Assembly (NCBI RefSeq): GCF_056712565.1
Contig: NZ_CM160072.1
DNA length: 64,000 bases
Direction: 5' to 3' (one strand)
Part shown: one piece after another, positions 3,321 through 60,812 of the stretch
Numbering within the stretch: position 1 is the stretch's first letter
Layout of the letters: every line of letters starts with the position of its first letter
Notes under the pieces: generated by a model
What the model was told of the DNA's origin: nothing
Database searches by the model: none
The model's input: the letters and a program-made list of their open reading frames with translations, nothing else
Translations under genes and position numbers: made by a program

Positions 3321-4067
3321 TTACCGGGCGATGAGTGCGAACACGCCCCAGCCAAAGCATTCCCGCGCGTAGGTCACGTAGCGTTTCGGCGCGATGTTTA
3401 GTTCGGCCCTGACTTCGGCGGCGAAGTCATCGTCAGGATTCGCTTCCAGCCAGCGGCGCATGGTCAGCCATTTTGCGGCTTCATACCGGTCCCAGCCTTC
3501 CTGGTCTGCCAGTACCATTTCCACCACGTCATAGCCGAGATCGTCGAACGCTCCGACAAGTCCTGGCAGCGTCAGGAAATCGCTTGTCGAGCTGACGCCG
3601 CAGGCCTGGGCTATTTCTTCTGTTGCTGGTAGCTGACGCCAGTAGGGTTCGCCGATAAGCATGATCCCGCCCGGTTTCAGGCTTTGCGCTAGCAGCTCCT
3701 CCGCCCCGGCAAACCCACCGGCAATCCATGTCGCGCCGACGCAGGCCGCCACGTCACATTTTTCATTTGCGACGTAACCGGCCGCATCGTTATGAATAAA
3801 ATGTACGCGTTCGCTGACGCCGAGTTCTTCCGCGCGACGCTTTGCCTGCGCGGTGAAGAGCGAACTCATGTCGATGCCAGTCCCCGTAATGCCATGATCC
3901 CTGGCCCAGGTGCAGAGCATCTCGCCCGAGCCGCTGCCGAGGTCAAGAATGCGGGTGCCCGGCTTCATGCGCAGCACGCGACCCAGCGTGGCGTACTTCT
4001 CTTCGGTGAACGGGTTATGGATGCGGTGTTCACTTTCGCTGATGGTAAAAATACGTGGGATATCCAT
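3321..4067 (-). CDS. yjhP: SAM-dependent methyltransferase YjhP (248 aa)
   Basis: ORF with methyltransferase motif I (ILDLGSGSGEM); position matches K-12 yjhP. Confidence 0.8.
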   Translation of the reverse strand: MDIPRIFTISESEHRIHNPFTEEKYATLGRVLRMKPGTRILDLGSGSGEMLCTWARDHGITGTGIDMSSLFTAQAKRRAEELGVSERVHFIHNDAAGYVANEKCDVAACVGATWIAGGFAGAEELLAQSLKPGGIMLIGEPYWRQLPATEEIAQACGVSSTSDFLTLPGLVGAFDDLGYDVVEMVLADQEGWDRYEAAKWLTMRRWLEANPDDDFAAEVRAELNIAPKRYVTYARECFGWGVFALIAR

Positions 4068-4122
4068 TATTTAATTCCTGTTATTGGGTTAAGCCTTAAA
4101 AAGGACACAACAAGATTGTTAT

Positions 4123-4668
4123 TCACGTCAGTGCTCCGGTTTCATCAGGGTCTGCGCACCGGATGTGGCCGGTCAGGGTCATGGGCTGAGCGGTGAGTGA
4201 TTGCATCATCCAGCAGGCTTTGTGCTCCTCCGGGATGGGATAAGGTGCCGGATAGCCTTTGTCTCCGGCACAGGGTTCGAACCCATGTCGGGGGTAATAG
4301 GTGGCGTGGCCGAGAACAAAAACCGTCTGGCAGCCCATCAACCTCAGGTGCTCGATGCCAGTGCGTATCAACCGTCCTCCCACGCCCATCCCTTGGTATT
4401 CCGGTATGAAAGCCAGGGGAGCGAGGATGTGCATCAACGGTGAATCCATTTCTCCTTTGAAGGTTGCCCGGGTAAATAAAATATGCCCGACGGCTTTGCC
4501 TTCATACCGGGCTAGCAGCGATAACGCGGGGCGCGCGCTTTCATCCTCAAGTAAAGAGGCCACTAAATCGGCTTCTTTGCCGAAGCCAAATGCGCGGGTT
4601 TCGACTTCCCGGATATCACTGGCATCACTTTTATCTGTGATATGAAAAGTGAAGTGGTGTACTGTCAT
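4123..4668 (-). CDS. yjhQ: GNAT acetyltransferase YjhQ (putative TopAI antitoxin)
   Basis: 181-aa ORF with GNAT-like core (QGMGVGGRLIRTGIEHL); immediately downstream of topAI. Confidence 0.8.
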   Translation of the reverse strand: MTVHHFTFHITDKSDASDIREVETRAFGFGKEADLVASLLEDESARPALSLLARYEGKAVGHILFTRATFKGEMDSPLMHILAPLAFIPEYQGMGVGGRLIRTGIEHLRLMGCQTVFVLGHATYYPRHGFEPCAGDKGYPAPYPIPEEHKACWMMQSLTAQPMTLTGHIRCADPDETGALT

Positions 4669-4679
4669 AGAAACTCTCC

Positions 4680-4936
4680 TTAGCGATTATCGAGCTGAGC
4701 GCGAACTTTATTCAGCTCGGTGGTGTTGATTCGATAGGGCTGGCCATTGACGGACTTGATAAGTTTTTGGTTTTGAGTTTTTTGAAGACGGCGAGCGTGC
4801 AGTCGGTCAGCAACAGCCCTTCGCGGCTGTAGCATTCAACGGAAGTGACGCGGCCTGAAGAATCGCGGACGTGCGCAATACGTCTACCTTTAGCGAGAAC
4901 GTGTAAGGTATGTTGTTCCTGACGGGATAAATTCAT
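4680..4936 (-). pseudogene. topAI: topAI (yjhX) topoisomerase I inhibitor toxin gene, frameshifted in an A-run
   Basis: ORF 4712-4936 gives [57 protein letters not shown] then diverges; the -1 frame continues [27 protein letters not shown] to TAA at 4680-4682, reconstituting the 85-aa K-12 protein if one A is added to the A5 run near 4765-4769. Confidence 0.7.
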
Positions 4937-5426
4937 ACTGAAGAACCTATTTAATCATCATGTGCAAAACGTGCAAACACACCGCGGTGTCCGCATTCGA
5001 TTTCGGCGCATTGATAATCAGTCCGGCCTGAAAAGGTCGGGGAACTGATTATCGGATGATTACATTCTCCAGCATCAAAGCCTCGGGTTGAGTTGAAAGG
5101 TATTTACGGAGCGAATATTAACACGTAGTTATAGGAGGGATATGTTTCAGTAGAAAAAGTGTGATGTACTTTGGAAATTGAATGCCAACCCATTTACTGG
5201 AAAAGGCAGATGACACTGACGAATGCATGTTGAAGTACGCCTGAAATGGCCTCATCGGCTTTTCCCTTCGGGAGATTATTCTCCTTTTGTTAAATCCAGA
5301 ACATAAATATGCTCACCCATATTCGATGCTTGAAAAATTGAAGCCAATCCTGATAAGTAATTTTTTTGAAAGGGTATTTTCCGGATTCACACCGGCTTTG
5401 ATGAGTGAAAAACCGTTCTCTTTTAT

Positions 5427-5600
5427 TCAGTCAATCGTGGCGGTAATTGCTTCAATTGCATATCCCTGGCGAGCATAAGCGGGACTGATGGTATAGCCGA
5501 GCCAAAACACATCGCATTGCTGACGTAAATAGATATCACCAATCAAAACCTGCGTCATTTGTTGACAATGGCCAATTGAATATCGCGAGCAAGTGTAAGA
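5427..5600 (-). pseudogene. C-terminal fragment of a GNAT/RimJ-like acetyltransferase (possibly yjhZ-type pseudogene)
   Basis: Minus frame reads ...IGHCQQMTQVLIGDIYLRQQCDVFWLGYTISPAYARQGYAIEAITATID-stop (TGA at 5427-5429); GNAT-like C-terminal motif with no intact N-terminus. Confidence 0.3.
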
Positions 5601-5897
5601 ACTCCCAGCAAGACCCTGTAAATAATTCTGTGTAACTGCCCACGATTAAAGGTGGCCGCTCAGGCGGTCACCGTATTCGATAATAAATGGGTCTGGAAAA
5701 AGTGCAGCATCTGGCAGCGTAATGCAGGTAGCCCAGTTCAACTCTCACTACCAGTATGATCCCAAGTTCGAGCGCGGAATGTATCTGTATGAGCATCGTC
5801 GCTGTTTCAATAACATCATCGACTACTGTAACTCACTTTGCTATCACGGTAAGTTGCAGCCTAAAAGAGGGATGGAAAAAGGACGATTTTCCCCGCA

Positions 5898-6914
5898 ATG
5901 GGATATTTACATATTGATGGTAGAGGCATGAAGCCAAATGGAGGGAGCCGTCATAACCCTCTTGAAGCTGAAACAATAGCAGCATGGCTGGTGGCACATA
6001 AGGATGATATAGAGCGCCATTACGGGGAACCACTGTACAAAGTTGTTGGTGTTGTGACGCCATTTTCGGCGCAGGTTAATGCTATCAAAATGTCATTGCG
6101 TAAGCTGGAAATTAATGGCAAAGACGAGCAGGGTTTACTGACAGTGGGGACTGTGCACTCCTTGCAGGGGGCGGAAAGGGCGATTGTTCTCTTTTCTCCT
6201 GTCTACTCAAAACATGAAGATGGCAGGTTTCTTGATAGCAACAGCACTATCCTCAATGTTGCTGTCTCACGCGCTAAAGATAGTTTTCTGGTATTTGGCG
6301 ATATGGACCTTATCGAGATGCAGCCCGCATTTTCGCCGCGAGGGTTATTGGCAAAATATCTCTTTTCTTCAGATAATAATGCGTTGCAATTTGAGTTTCA
6401 GAAACGACAGGATTTAATTTCCGCACATACACAAATTTCAACGCTGCATGGTGTGGAGCAGCATGATGAATTTTTGAACAAGACTCTTGCCGGAGCTCAA
6501 AAGAAAATAACGATTATTTCCCCTTGGTTATCCTGGCAAAAAGTGGAGCAAACGGGATTTCTGGCATCAATGGCTTTGGCCCGTTCCCGGGGCATTGATA
6601 TTACCGTGGTGACGGATAAAAACTGCAATATAGCGCATGTCGATGATGATAAGCGTCAGGAGAAACAACATCTGCTGAATGATGCTGTTGAAAAGCTCAA
6701 TAAGATGGGTATCGCTACGAAATTGGTTAATCGTGTTCACAGCAAAATTGTGATTGAGGATGAAGAACTGCTGTGTGTCGGATCTTTTAACTGGTTCAGT
6801 GCTACACGGGAAGATAAGTATCAACGATACGATACGTCTTTGGTGTACCGTGGTGAAGGCGTAAAAAATGAAATAAAGGCAATATATGGTAGTCTGGATC
6901 AACGTCAGCTTTAA
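5898..6914 (+). CDS. yjhR: YjhR-like protein: C-terminal SF1 helicase motifs fused to a PLD-like domain; likely remnant of a larger gene
   Basis: 338-aa ORF with helicase C-terminal motifs ([22 protein letters not shown]) followed by a PLD-like region ([24 protein letters not shown]); upstream 5722-5931 frame has further helicase-like sequence in another frame. Confidence 0.6.
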
Positions 6915-7496
6915 ATGTGATGAGCCGTTCATGATACAGGAGTAGTAAAGGGCATATTTTACCAATGTTAAGGCGACTTTCCGTTTTATTGTGAGTCGCC
7001 TTTCCTGATTATAAATCTTATTGTTTACCTAATCATTTTCCTTTGCATAATGCGCCTGGGATTAATGGCGGGTGCTTTTAGGAATGAAAGAAAATGCAAG
7101 CAATAATATAATAATGGCCTAATTTCTTTGAACATCATTAAGCATATCATCATCGTCTATTTGCCAGAATCCGTCGACTTATAATCGCCAGAACGGCATA
7201 TCAGGACGGTGCTGCGAACGCTGTGGCCCAAAACGTTCCAGTAAACTGTGTAGATGTTCGTAGATTTCCGAGCCATAATCGAAAAGGCGCGGATGTCTAT
7301 TAAGGCATCCGGCTAATCTGTAAGCAATAACAACGGTTTATGCGGTGCGCGTTTTTCACCCTTGTGCCAGATTATTATATTGGCAATTGCCTGCTGTTCG
7401 AGCCCGCAAGTGAAGAGATATTACCTTGATCTCATTTGTTTTTTGTTGTCTACTCTGAGAACGAACAAGGACATCCCCCATGAATAAACTCCCCGC

Positions 7497-8477
7497 TCAC
7501 CTTTCGCGCCAAAACTGCAAAATTGCTTCTACAAATCTGTCAGAAATAATCCCCCGACGGGCTGCAGTGCTGAAATGACTGCTTCGCAGTGCCGTCGTCC
7601 AGTTCTCCGGTGACCGGTACGCTGAACCGTAATATCCCGTGCTTAAATCGTCCGGGTCTTCATCAGGCGCGTTCGTCAGTCCTCTTTCACCTTGTTGCTG
7701 GAAGTCGACGAAAATAATATTGGCTAAAACATTATTTTGATAATTGCCATAAATAGCTTCATACGAATGCGGGAAATTTTCTTTCCAGTACCAGGTGGTA
7801 TCGCCGCAAAACCACGGCGCGTCAGTAATATTATTAAGCTGAGAATGGTATTGTTTTAGATCCCTACGAAAGGCTTCAACCATATGATTAAAGTGTTGAG
7901 GGTGTGACGCGTAGTCACTGGTCATTAAGTCAAATTCGCCTTGCATCCAGCATGCGCCGAGGAATTTGTTCTGCGGATTTTTTGCCAGTGCGGCTCGCGT
8001 TCTGCTGACTAAATCCTGGTACAGCGGAGTATCCGTTCCCCAACGACAAGCATCATGGCTGGCTCCGTGCCGTTCTGAATATGTCCCTTCGCTGCCCGCG
8101 GTAAAAGCCGATCCGCCACGGCAACACGGAACGATAAGAATCCCTGCATTATCAGGAATGAAGGGCAGTAATTTCCGTGCAATATGCAGTGCCTGGCCAA
8201 CGGTGCCGTACTGTGTTTGATGATTCGTTGCCAGAGGATGGTGATAACCCTGCATATCCTGAACATCGTGTGGGCAGTGAGTCAGTGGAATAATGTCGTT
8301 AAAGTGACATGGCGGGCCTCCGGGATGCGTATGCGCAAATCTCGCTAATTGTTTAATTCTGGGATGAGGCGCATCTTCCCTGTCCGGTAATGGCAGTCCT
8401 TCGCCATACGCCATGGCATTAGACTGACCAGCAACGGTAAGAACATAGTAATAATCGGGCGATATTATTGCGTTCAT
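7497..8477 (-). CDS. nanS: N-acetyl-9-O-acetylneuraminate esterase NanS (YjhS)
   Basis: ORF 7497-8504; start set at MNAIISPDYYYVLTVAGQSNAMAYG to give 326 aa; downstream of nanM/nanC. Confidence 0.8.
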   Translation of the reverse strand: MNAIISPDYYYVLTVAGQSNAMAYGEGLPLPDREDAPHPRIKQLARFAHTHPGGPPCHFNDIIPLTHCPHDVQDMQGYHHPLATNHQTQYGTVGQALHIARKLLPFIPDNAGILIVPCCRGGSAFTAGSEGTYSERHGASHDACRWGTDTPLYQDLVSRTRAALAKNPQNKFLGACWMQGEFDLMTSDYASHPQHFNHMVEAFRRDLKQYHSQLNNITDAPWFCGDTTWYWKENFPHSYEAIYGNYQNNVLANIIFVDFQQQGERGLTNAPDEDPDDLSTGYYGSAYRSPENWTTALRSSHFSTAARRGIISDRFVEAILQFWRER

Positions 8478-48500: not shown

Positions 48501-49032
48501 GGGCAACCAGCTTCTGCTGTTGCGCTTCGACTTCTGCCCGAGTCTGCGCTTTTTCTCGCGCCTGCTGTTCAAGCTGTTGTTTTAGCGTCAGCACTTCCTG
48601 GTGATAGAGGTTTTCGCCACGTTCCGGCAACACAAATACCGGCACCGGGAAGTCATAATCTTTGGTGACCAGACGGTAGTACCAGACAGCCAGGCGGAAC
48701 CCGAGTCGCAGGCACATCTGGGCATCGTCGAGATCGTTATGGTATTCGTGCACCGCCTGGTTACCAATGCGGCGTAATTTGTGGAATACAGAGAGAATGT
48801 TGTCATCAACGAAGGCGATTTTGCCGAGTTCGCGCAGGAGATCGTGTTGATTCTCACAAGGGGGGATGTTGAGTAACAGACCAAGATGTTTCGCTGTAGC
48901 TTCGCCAAACATACGCATTTTAATCAGCGTCGTGTTGGGATCATCCGGGTAGTTATTTTCCGCCGCACAGGCGATGGCATAAGTGAAGTCGTTGACGCCC
49001 TTCAGGAATTCGAAGTTGGATTTATTCATCAT
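45520..49032 (-). CDS. hsdR: Type I restriction endonuclease subunit HsdR
   Basis: 1170-aa ORF with helicase motif I (GTGKTRT) and DEAH-like VVDEAHRG; upstream of hsdM/hsdS. Confidence 0.9.
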   Translation of the reverse strand: MMNKSNFEFLKGVNDFTYAIACAAENNYPDDPNTTLIKMRMFGEATAKHLGLLLNIPPCENQHDLLRELGKIAFVDDNILSVFHKLRRIGNQAVHEYHNDLDDAQMCLRLGFRLAVWYYRLVTKDYDFPVPVFVLPERGENLYHQEVLTLKQQLEQQAREKAQTRAEVEAQQQKLVALNGYIAILEGKQQETEAQTQARLAALEAQLAEKNAELAKQTEQERKAYHKEITDQAIKRTLNLSEEESRFLIDAQLRKAGWQADSKTLRFSKGARPEPGVNKAIAEWPTGKDETGNQGFADYVLFVGLKPIAVVEAKRKNIDVPGKLNESYRYSKCFDNGFLRETLLEHYSPDEVHEAVPEYETSWQDTSGQQRFKIPFCYSTNGREYRAAMKTKSGIWYRDVRDTRNMSKALPEWHRPEELLEMLGSEPQKQNQWFADNPGMSELGLRYYQEDAVRAVEKAIVKGQQEILLAMATGTGKTRTAIAMMFRLIQSQRFKRILFLVDRRSLGEQALGAFEDTRINGDTFNSIFDIKGLTDKFPEDSTKIHVATVQSLVKRTLQSDEPMPVARYDCIVVDEAHRGYILDKEQTEGELQFRSQLDYVSAYRRILDHFDAVKIALTATPALHTVQIFGEPVYRYTYRTAVIDGFLIDQDPPIQIITRNAQEGVYLSKGEQVERISPQGEVINDTLEDDQDFEVADFNRGLVIPAFNRAVCNELTNYLDPTGSQKTLVFCVTNAHADMVVEELRTAFKKKYPQLEHDAIIKITGDADKDARKVQTMITRFNKERLPNIVVTVDLLTTGVDIPSICNIVFLRKVRSRILYEQMKGRATRLCPDVNKTSFKIFDCVDIYSTLESVDTMRPVVVRPKVELQTLVNEITDSETYKITEADGRSFAEHSHEQLVAKLQRIIGLATFNRDRSETIDKQVRRLDELCQDAAGVNFNGFASRLREKGPHWSAEVFNKLPGFIARLEKLKTDINNLNDAPIFLDIDDEVVSVKSLYGDYDTPQDFLEAFDSLVQRSPNAQPALQAVINRPRDLTRKGLVELQEWFDRQHFEESSLRKAWKETRNEDIAARLIGHIRRAAVGDALKPFEERVDHALTRIKGENDWSSEQLSWLDRLAQALKEKVVLDDDVFKTGNFHRRGGKAMLQRTFDDNLDNLLDKFSDYIWDELA

Positions 49033-53994: not shown

Positions 53995-55650
53995 ATGTTA
54001 AAACGTATCAAAATTGTGACCAGCCTACTGCTGGTTTTGGCCGTTTTTGGCCTTTTACAACTGACTTCAGGCGGTCTGTTCTTTAATGCCTTAAAGAACG
54101 ACAAAGAAAATTTCACTGTTTTACAAACCATTCGCCAGCAGCAATCCACGCTGAATGGCAGCTGGGTCGCTTTGTTGCAGACGCGTAACACCCTCAACCG
54201 CGCGGGTATCCGCTACATGATGGATCAGAACAATATTGGTAGCGGTTCAACCGTTGCTGAGCTGATGCAGAGTGCCAGTATTTCGCTGAAACAGGCGGAA
54301 AAAAACTGGGCGGATTACGAAGCGTTGCCGCGTGACCCGCGTCAGAGCACCGCCGCAGCGGCAGAGATCAAACGTAATTACGATATTTATCACAATGCGC
54401 TGGCGGAGCTGATACAACTGTTAGGTGCAGGCAAAATCAACGAGTTCTTTGATCAGCCGACCCAGGGATATCAGGACGGTTTCGAGAAGCAGTATGTGGC
54501 TTACATGGAGCAAAACGATCGGCTCTATGATATCGCCGTCAGCGATAACAATGCCTCCTACAGCCAGGCGATGTGGATTCTGGTAGGCGTGATGATCGTC
54601 GTACTGGCGGTCATCCTCGCCGTCTGGTTCGGTATTAAAGCCTCGCTGGTAGCGCCAATGAATCGCCTGATTGACAGCATTCGTCATATTGCAGGCGGCG
54701 ATCTGGTGAAACCGATTGAGGTGGATGGCTCTAATGAGATGGGGCAACTGGCAGAGAGTTTGCGCCATATGCAGGGAGAGCTGATGCGTACCGTCGGTGA
54801 TGTGCGCAACGGGGCCAATGCCATCTATAGCGGTGCCAGCGAAATCGCCACCGGCAATAACGATCTCTCTTCGCGCACCGAGCAACAGGCCGCTTCGCTG
54901 GAAGAGACGGCAGCCAGCATGGAGCAACTGACCGCAACGGTGAAACAGAATGCCGAAAATGCGCGCCAGGCCAGCCATCTGGCGTTAAGTGCTTCCGAAA
55001 CGGCGCAACGCGGCGGCAAAGTGGTGGATAACGTGGTGCAGACCATGCGCGATATCTCCACCAGTTCGCAGAAAATCGCCGATATTATCAGCGTAATTGA
55101 CGGCATTGCCTTCCAGACCAATATTCTGGCTTTGAACGCGGCGGTTGAGGCTGCGCGTGCGGGTGAGCAAGGACGCGGTTTTGCGGTGGTCGCGGGAGAA
55201 GTGCGTAATCTGGCCCAGCGTAGCGCTCAGGCTGCTCGTGAAATTAAAAGCCTGATTGAAGACTCGGTGGGGAAAGTGGATGTTGGCTCTACGCTGGTCG
55301 AAAGCGCCGGGGAAACAATGGCGGAGATTGTCAGTGCCGTGACCCGCGTGACGGACATTATGGGCGAAATTGCTTCTGCTTCTGATGAGCAGAGCCGTGG
55401 TATCGATCAGGTTGGCTTAGCGGTTGCTGAGATGGACCGGGTAACTCAACAGAACGCCGCGCTGGTGGAAGAATCTGCCGCCGCCGCCGCCGCGCTGGAA
55501 GAACAGGCCAGTCGCCTGACCGAAGCAGTGGCAGTGTTCCGGATTCAGCAACAGCAGCGTGAAGCATCGGCTGTGGTAAAAACCGTGACGCCAGCTACGC
55601 CGCGCAAAATGGCCGTGGCAGATAGCGAGGAGAACTGGGAAACGTTTTAA
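53995..55650 (+). CDS. tsr: Methyl-accepting chemotaxis protein I (serine chemoreceptor) Tsr
   Basis: 551-aa ORF with TM1, periplasmic domain, HAMP and conserved signalling domain ([41 protein letters not shown]) and C-terminal NWETF. Confidence 0.95.
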
Positions 55651-59159: not shown

Positions 59160-60812
59160 ATGGAAATACTTTTAACAATTTTAATTCTTACGTTGGTAGT
59201 ATCATTAACCAGCGTGCTTACACGTCTGTCTCCTGTCCAGATACCACTTCCTTTAATCCAGATTGCCGCTGGCGCAGTACTGGCCCAGCCTATATTTGGT
59301 CTGCATGTGGAATTCAATCCTGAACTTTTTCTCTTATTGTTTATACCACCCCTGTTGTTTGCTGAAAGTTCAAAAATACAACCTAAAGAATTGATCAAGC
59401 ACAGCCGGGAAATTATCAGCCTGGCACTTGTGTTGGTACTAATCACTATTTTTTGTGTCGGCTATGTGATTCATTTACTCTTACCGAATGTGCCGCTCAT
59501 CGCTGCTTTCGCATTAGCCGCCGTGTTGTCGCCTACCGATGCCGTGGCGTTGCTGGGGATTGTCGGGAAAGGGCGTATCAGCAAAAACATCCAGGAAGTG
59601 CTCGAAGGCGAAGCGTTGATGAATGATGCTTCCGGCCTGGTGGCGTTGAAATTTGCTGTTGCAGTGACGATGGGAACGATGGAATTCAGCGTTCATGGCG
59701 CAACCATTGCGTTTTTTGTCGTTGCGTTGGGCGGTATTGCCGTGGGGATCGCTGTTACCTGGTTATATGGTAAAGGGCTGCTGTTGATCAGCCGATATGC
59801 TCACGATGAACCTTCCATTCAGATTGTATTGATGCTTCTGTTGCCGTTTATTGTTTATCTGGTTGCGGAACATTTTGGCTTATCTGGCATTCTTGCCGCT
59901 GTCGCCGCGGGGTTAACAACCAGTCGCATTGGTGTAGTCCACCACGCGCCTATTCGCCTGAGAATTAAAGCTAAAAGTAGCTGGTCGATGCTTGAATATG
60001 TCTTTAACGGCATGGTGTTTCTGATTTTAGGCTTACAACTGCCGGGCATTATTTCGGAATCACTGATCCGTGCAGAAAACGATCCACTGGTGGACACCGG
60101 ATCGCTGCTCCTTGATGTCATTTGGATCTACCTGGCGTTAATGGTTGTGCGCCTGGGCTGGCTTTGGCTGATGCGTCTGTATAGCCGTAAACGACCCGGC
60201 AAACATCCGATGCTGTTTGCTGGATATAAAACGCGTCATATGCTGCTGGCGACCTTTGCGGGGGTGCGCGGAGCTATCACGCTTGCGGGGGTGCTTTCTA
60301 TCCCGTTATTGCTGCCGGATGGCACACCTTTTCCCGGGCGTTACTTGCTGGTATTTCTCGCCACAGGTGTGATCCTCTTTTCGCTGGTTTGCGGCATTAT
60401 TATTCTGCCGTTATTACTGGGGAAAAATGTGGGGATTTTCAGCGATAACCGACAAAAAGAAGAGGAAGCTGCCGATCTGTTTATGGCTAAAATGGCCATA
60501 CTGAGTGTGCAAAAGACCGAGCAACGTTTGCTGCGCGCCAGAACAGAAAACCTCGATAACGAGTTGATTATGGAAACGGGGGCCAGAGTTATCGGTTATA
60601 TGCGACATAGTGAAGAGGATATGTCGCCTAATGATAATTCCCTGCATATGCAGCGTGCGAAGCTGGAAAGAACATTTAATCTGGCGGCGTTAAATGCCAA
60701 ACGCGCGGCTATTTACCAGATGCGCGCAAGGCAAGAAGTCAGTGATGAAACACTGGCAAAAATAGTCAGTGAATTAGATGTGCTGGAAACGTTAATCATG
60801 GATAGCCGATAA
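59160..60812 (+). CDS. CPA1-family Na+/H+ (cation/proton) antiporter
   Basis: ORF 59139-60812; start likely MEILLTIL; N-terminal transport domain with NhaP-like motifs (SPTDAVALLG, EGEALMNDASGLV) and a long cytoplasmic tail. Confidence 0.75.
   Translation: MEILLTILILTLVVSLTSVLTRLSPVQIPLPLIQIAAGAVLAQPIFGLHVEFNPELFLLLFIPPLLFAESSKIQPKELIKHSREIISLALVLVLITIFCVGYVIHLLLPNVPLIAAFALAAVLSPTDAVALLGIVGKGRISKNIQEVLEGEALMNDASGLVALKFAVAVTMGTMEFSVHGATIAFFVVALGGIAVGIAVTWLYGKGLLLISRYAHDEPSIQIVLMLLLPFIVYLVAEHFGLSGILAAVAAGLTTSRIGVVHHAPIRLRIKAKSSWSMLEYVFNGMVFLILGLQLPGIISESLIRAENDPLVDTGSLLLDVIWIYLALMVVRLGWLWLMRLYSRKRPGKHPMLFAGYKTRHMLLATFAGVRGAITLAGVLSIPLLLPDGTPFPGRYLLVFLATGVILFSLVCGIIILPLLLGKNVGIFSDNRQKEEEAADLFMAKMAILSVQKTEQRLLRARTENLDNELIMETGARVIGYMRHSEEDMSPNDNSLHMQRAKLERTFNLAALNAKRAAIYQMRARQEVSDETLAKIVSELDVLETLIMDSR

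Follow-up and report, generated by a model that had tools for sequence, protein, structure and literature searches.

The topAI toxin gene of the window, the whole 64-kb stretch of DNA analysed here, is frameshifted as written by the loss of one A from a homopolymer, and we judge this missing base more likely to be an assembly or base-calling undercall, with a probability of about 0.62. The organism itself would then have A6 and an intact 85-residue TopAI, and the missing A would be a homopolymer undercall left in the consensus. Error is favoured because the A5 call is a singleton, because it recurs mainly in error-prone assemblies, because its rate in public data is at or below background, and because the same assembly contains a chimeric fimS switch. 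A first-pass annotation of this locus, made from the sequence alone, had offered slipped-strand inactivation and homopolymer sequencing error as alternatives, and these two stand as the only live explanations.

The topAI reading frame

The frameshifted ORF (Table 1) begins with the 57 native codons of topAI (4936-4766), continues through 17 out-of-frame codons and stops at a TGA at 4714-4712. Its 74-residue product is already on record, as an exact match, under WP_001338190.1. The shift falls at nucleotides 169-173 of the ORF, in a run of five As whose homologue in all relatives examined is A6 (codons K57-K58). Adding one A regains K58 and the 27 residues that follow it, up to the native TAA, and the resulting 85-residue protein is identical to K-12 TopAI (WP_001054376.1 in strain 104, AH19D088 and MG1655). 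The first-pass annotation had described 57 residues of K-12 TopAI, a shift at an A5 run and recovery of the last 28 residues by a single added A, and the sequence agrees with it on each point; the run itself, which it had put at about 4765-4769, lies one base further left.

At the level of sequence, the match to TopAI is far beyond chance. The repaired protein matches the Pfam family PF09857 (YjhX_toxin) with 127.2 bits over positions 1-85 of 85, and the 74-residue product matches it with 86.4 bits over profile positions 1-67 of 85, both scores being above the gathering score of 27 bits. As written, the window does not encode a full-length domain of about 85 residues with the PYRI...VRAQxDNR C-terminus; that motif is encoded out of frame in the displaced 3' part of the gene, and a 51-aa ORF at 4680-4835 has this displaced sequence as its end. 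A second A6 run, located 10 bases upstream of the affected run, is intact and provides a control site within the same gene.

Table 1. Features of the topAI-yjhQ-yjhP locus in window coordinates.
Feature	Position	Strand	Basis
topAI ORF, frameshifted, 74-aa product	4712..4936	-	ORF list and translation
Frameshift site, A5 (T5 on the plus strand)	4764..4768	-	Single gap against relatives
Displaced topAI 3' part, L59-R85 and TAA (4682-4680)	4680..4763	-	Readable only with one A restored
Second topAI A6 run, internal control site, intact	4778..4783	-	Codons F51-K52-K53
yjhQ, GNAT acetyltransferase, reported antitoxin, 181 aa, intact	4123..4668	-	PF00583, PF13508; annotation in relatives
yjhP, SAM-dependent methyltransferase, third operon gene, 248 aa, intact	3321..4067	-	ORF, domains, relatives
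toiL regulatory uORF, intact, ATG CTG GAG AAT GTA ATC ATC CGA TAA (MLENVIIR)	5049..5075	-	Direct read
topAI 5' upstream region, 171 nt, pyrimidine-rich rut at 5' end, unchanged	4937..5107	-	Position set by identity with relatives

The operon and its leader

These genes form the known topAI-yjhQ-yjhP operon, preceded by its toiL leader, on an E. coli chromosome of ST95-like type (phylogroup B2). In K-12, TopAI inhibits topoisomerase I and so arrests growth, and is neutralised by YjhQ (PMC4666372). The window has the same order, with topAI followed within about 11 nt by yjhQ and then by yjhP (cf. PMC4666372); the yjhQ ATG lies 11 nt past the normal topAI stop and is preceded by its own AAGGAG Shine-Dalgarno sequence. 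The earlier statement that the downstream GNAT gene is intact holds, as the yjhQ ORF is complete and its DNA is identical in the window and strain 104.

Inside the 171-nt leader, toiL starts with an ATG 139 nt upstream of that of topAI. The toiL DNA is the same as in strain 104, and its flanking TTG/CTG, AAT at codon 4, Val5 and UAA stop agree with the published description (bioRxiv 10.1101/682021). Given that the K-12 topAI leader measures 171 nt from the transcription start (bioRxiv 10.1101/682021), transcription of topAI would start near 5107 in the window. The published Rho-termination zone, nt 10-42 of the topAI ORF (Baniulyte & Wade, bioRxiv 10.1101/682021), is placed at 4927-4895, and the A5 run is downstream of all known topAI control elements. 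An Rfam scan of 4000-6000, leader included, matched no family. The window resembles the K-12 operon (PMC4666372; bioRxiv 10.1101/682021) in gene order, in the 11-nt gap, in toiL spacing and in the sizes of yjhQ and yjhP. It differs from K-12 in lacking one A of the K57-K58 A6 run, which yields the 74-residue product, and in having the B2-type yjhQ allele WP_001350781.1 in place of WP_001309181.1.

The A5 run is private to one assembly

Comparison with other strains, which the first-pass annotation had suggested, finds A6 in every relative examined. A query of 81 bases with the run at its centre matched 1035 complete E. coli genomes; A5 is present in none of them (0/1035), the best matches all being 81/82. 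Over 1.2 kb, the missing A is the sole difference between the window and strain 104. When the full 64 kb is compared with the two closest complete genomes, AH19D088 and strain 104, A5 is the only single-base indel, the remaining differences being three or four isolated SNPs and an anomaly in the fim switch. No other homopolymer discrepancy was found in the 64 kb against near-identical relatives. As would be expected of an artefact, A5 is private to one assembly and absent from its close relatives.

The nonsynonymous SNPs are an HsdR Q>R change at 48539 and a Na+/H+ antiporter G>C change at 59454. Neither occurs in the closest RefSeq complete genomes that were examined (directly checked in two), and together they mark a sublineage of at least 20 other public contigs, GCA_027274065.1 among them. 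With one member of this sublineage, JAPXBK010000001.1, the window shares 100% identity over the 19.5 kb compared. On these alignments the window appears to have no demonstrable private substitutions, yet it has a private homopolymer indel, a combination that error fits better than evolution. None of the seven contigs of at least 50 kb that carry the 74-residue product has the window's background (0/7). A5 appears to be absent from sublineage members with contigs over 1 Mb, since no sublineage contig is found among the carriers of the 74-residue product; protein look-ups reach 10 kb from the marker genes, and topAI lies about 40 kb off.

The same call in public data

The 74-residue product is found on 39 contigs (49 index blocks), which amounts to 0.086% of the 56,721 blocks of the intact allele. 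Ten A5 carriers were fetched. None has the window's background, and they fall on at least three different, unrelated backgrounds; A5 is a recurrent call and not an inherited one. Eight of these carriers show additional 1-bp indels within 6 kb, among them indels at CCWGG (Dcm) sites and deletions in other homopolymers, and such indels are marks of uncorrected long-read or 454 data.

The other two carriers are clean (L004 and L008). One of them, CP041563.1 (L004, 3289-5818), has an IS66-family element inserted in yjhQ after codon 6, together with A5 in topAI. The insertion is accompanied by an 8-bp target duplication (CACTTCAC) equivalent to window positions 4651-4658. Both genes of the pair are hit in this record, an arrangement that suggests real operon decay. 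A genuine A5 allele thus probably exists somewhere in nature, since CP041563.1 is clean and its yjhQ is cut by the IS66-family element.

The A5 product is unevenly distributed over assembly types. Expressed as a share of all topAI-carrying blocks in each contig class, it makes up 0.17-0.44% on contigs under 10 kb, 0.008-0.02% on contigs of 10-200 kb (typical short-read drafts) and 0.19% on contigs over 1 Mb (long-read assemblies). The excess on contigs under 10 kb relative to the rest is highly significant (Fisher p=8e-17), as is that on contigs over 1 Mb relative to those of 10-200 kb (odds ratio 17, Fisher p=5e-4).

Deletion rates at control homopolymers

An essential-gene control was dropped, as the only A6 run of dnaC gives a 13-aa product that is never gene-called; btsT, opgB, tsr and the other run of topAI were used instead. 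Deletion in the upstream, intact run of topAI is found on 128 contigs (146 blocks, 0.26%), and its product is three times as common in public data as that of the affected run. The G6 to G5 deletion in btsT is found in 106 of about 24,000 blocks (0.44%). Both of these deletion products follow the A5 product in their contig-length profile and are missing from the 50 kb-1 Mb class. The two A6 sites of opgB show deletions on 13 and 5 contigs. Insertions are seen on 4 contigs for each of the two topAI runs, and deletions exceed insertions 10-30 fold.

The A5 allele is accordingly at or below the generic homopolymer-deletion background, and the toxin gene is not singled out, because the rates at the other topAI run and at btsT G6 are equal or higher. 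The same miscall recurs on unrelated backgrounds, in error-prone data and at the background rate, as would be expected of an artefact. The heading of the first-pass annotation, in which a toxin is lost while its antitoxin is kept, implies selection, and this framing is unsupported, both control rates being higher than that of A5.

The one-base deletion product of the tsr A7 run (138 aa) occurs on 209 contigs (L019 4836-6491; window about 54,000-55,650). Genomes of Shigella dysenteriae and S. flexneri have it annotated, and there it is a real inherited pseudogene. The tsr A7 run is confounded as a control because of these real Shigella pseudogenes, and homopolymer frameshift products in the collection are not all errors.

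Among the carriers of the deletion in the upstream topAI run, several belong to one SRA series (SRR196341xx) and some have clean flanks. Five of eight such carriers, from unrelated assemblies, share a C deletion at a CCTGG Dcm site in yjhQ (CTCCCCTGG, window 4419), which splits yjhQ into 99 + 88 aa. A further public record (L009) has the same C deletion and a second one, with a split into 77 + 88 aa. The CCTGG deletion in yjhQ is a systematic long-read error and could pass for antitoxin loss.

A chimeric fimS switch in the same assembly

The invertible switch fimS (13566-13892) is an ON/OFF chimera in the window, anomalous at 13575-13600 and at 13726-13739. Just inside the left inverted repeat lie ~26 bases of OFF-type sequence; the rest is ON-type, with a 14-base OFF-derived insertion (CATCTTCCTCATTC) at the centre. 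These anomalies create perfect inverted repeats, one terminal (36 bp) and one central (16 bp). The window's version of fimS is absent from 5426 complete genomes, in which the best full-length identity is 92.4%. The chimera is probably a consensus of mixed ON and OFF reads, because two independent template-switch mutations in one 314-bp element would be far less likely. It follows that the assembly contains consensus artefacts, though it is otherwise clean.

Consequence of the deletion, if real

If the deletion is real, the 74-residue product is very probably non-toxic, because the 28 lost residues are conserved and form part of the predicted fold. Conservation in this segment equals that of the rest of TopAI, with 14 of the 28 residues invariant across 21 Enterobacterales. 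Conservation of I60, S62, Q81 and D83 stays at 90% or more when relatives with identities as low as 35% are included. The motif LI.S..G.PYRI...VRAQ.DNR is kept down to the same level, nearly all relatives ending at DNR, and all 21 close relatives and most of the 40 distant ones retain the C-terminal motif. A structure model from alignment A2 (pLDDT 87.5, pTM 0.74) predicts two β-strands and a C-terminal helix (72-84) in the lost part; a first model, from the shallow alignment A1, was poor (pLDDT 62.5) and was set aside. Searched against the PDB with Foldseek, the model had no hit at E<=1e-3 and showed only a weak winged-helix-like resemblance (TM <=0.5), and no fold is assigned. A PDB sequence search likewise found nothing, and a literature search found no published analysis of TopAI truncation. 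The toxin inactivation raised by the first-pass annotation is thus a reasonable outcome of a real deletion, given the conserved residues and the predicted strands and helix that would be lost, with error remaining the favoured account of the missing base.

The effect on the rest of the operon would probably be small. The 74-aa ORF stops 44 nt before the yjhQ ATG, and downstream expression of yjhQ would be little changed even by a real deletion, because yjhQ has its own Shine-Dalgarno sequence.

Error or real deletion

The A5 call shares several properties with the homopolymer undercalls of long-read or 454 assemblies. It is a one-base deletion in a run of six and a singleton, it turns up again in assemblies with further 1-bp indels, some of them at Dcm sites, deletions far outnumber insertions, and contigs over 1 Mb and very short contigs hold more than their share of it. 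It differs from them in that no other such error is present across the window's 64 kb. The likeness to orphan antitoxins and toxin pseudogenes lies in a toxin ORF broken as written beside an intact partner, and CP041563.1 shows that the topAI operon can really decay. Unlike such cases, the present lesion shows no inheritance, is not enriched relative to control genes and gives no sign of selection. We infer that this particular call belongs to the error class.

The alternative is that replication slippage shortened A6 to A5 in the strain or in culture, truncating TopAI after residue 57 and leaving YjhQ and YjhP as an orphan pair under an intact toiL leader. We regard this as possible, though somewhat improbable. 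The high base-level accuracy of the window, with a sole indel in 64 kb, sets it apart from most public A5 carriers, which are visibly noisy; the chimeric fimS consensus in the same assembly argues the other way, although some polishers can also yield such a chimera. Short-read polishing, if done, should have mended an A6 undercall. A6 runs are real slippage hotspots, loss of a tightly repressed toxin costs the cell nothing, and the deletion would very probably inactivate TopAI, as the lost segment is strongly conserved and lies inside a confidently predicted fold. Against slippage, the allele is a singleton, shows no trace of inheritance within the sublineage and has no private SNPs alongside. 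Clean carriers are known, and the combination of A5 with the IS66-family insertion in CP041563.1 fits real decay. The frequency of about 0.01% for A5 in 10-200 kb contigs is also about what would be expected of terminal-branch slippage. The overall public frequency and contig-length profile, however, are those of the homopolymer-error background, and A5 is rarer than the control-run deletions, with no sign of selection on the toxin. Knowledge of the sequencing method would shift this balance: error is very likely if the consensus is from long reads only, and unlikely if the assembly was polished with short reads.

A bolder version holds that the deletion is both real and selected, so that an ExPEC strain without TopAI but with YjhQ and YjhP escapes arrest under antibiotics. 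Ribosome-targeting antibiotics switch topAI on through toiL, and in this version the two A6 runs in a lysine-rich stretch would serve as a ready-made off-switch. We consider this version very unlikely.

Still less credible is phase variation, in which the run would act as a contingency tract and changes in its length would turn TopAI on and off. The homopolymer does lie inside coding sequence, and +1 and -1 products of both topAI runs occur in public data. The run is only 6 bases long, A6 is fixed in 1035/1035 complete genomes, variants total well under 0.5%, as in ordinary genes such as btsT, and close relatives show no alternation of states. Phase variation is effectively refuted by the universal A6 and by variant rates of 0.086-0.26% against 0.44% in the control gene.

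Programmed -1 ribosomal frameshifting or transcriptional slippage that restores full-length TopAI from the A5 template is the least probable reading and is likewise effectively refuted: a shift of -1 on the A-run would recover the frame, and ACC AAA AAC is A-rich, but the frame-0 C AAA AAC departs from the X XXY YYZ pattern in its first base, C, leaving no slippery motif, RNA polymerase would not slip efficiently on only five As, and there is no conserved recoding signal, because the in-frame A6 form is universal among relatives.

Implications for annotation

The operon, the leader and the type of lesion are all already known, and none of them is new here. The missing base carries little biological weight, and its practical value is for annotation. 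Because the A5 call in public data is mainly an error, the frameshift should not be reported as loss of TopAI or as an orphan antitoxin without read-level confirmation. A real deletion would amount to another routine toxin pseudogene, confined to one strain. The control at population level can be used again: one-base homopolymer-deletion products of ordinary genes amount to 0.1-0.4% of the intact allele and, in large public collections, are concentrated in long-read and fragmentary assemblies.

We further observe pseudogenes of another kind close to the operon. In near-identical relatives, the RefSeq annotation of the region corresponding to 5898-7400 and about 7800-8300 lists three remnants, namely a yjhR helicase that is frameshifted and truncated, part of a phosphorothioated-DNA-binding restriction endonuclease, and a sialate O-acetylesterase that is also truncated. 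These yjhR-region pseudogenes are lineage-wide and not private to the window.
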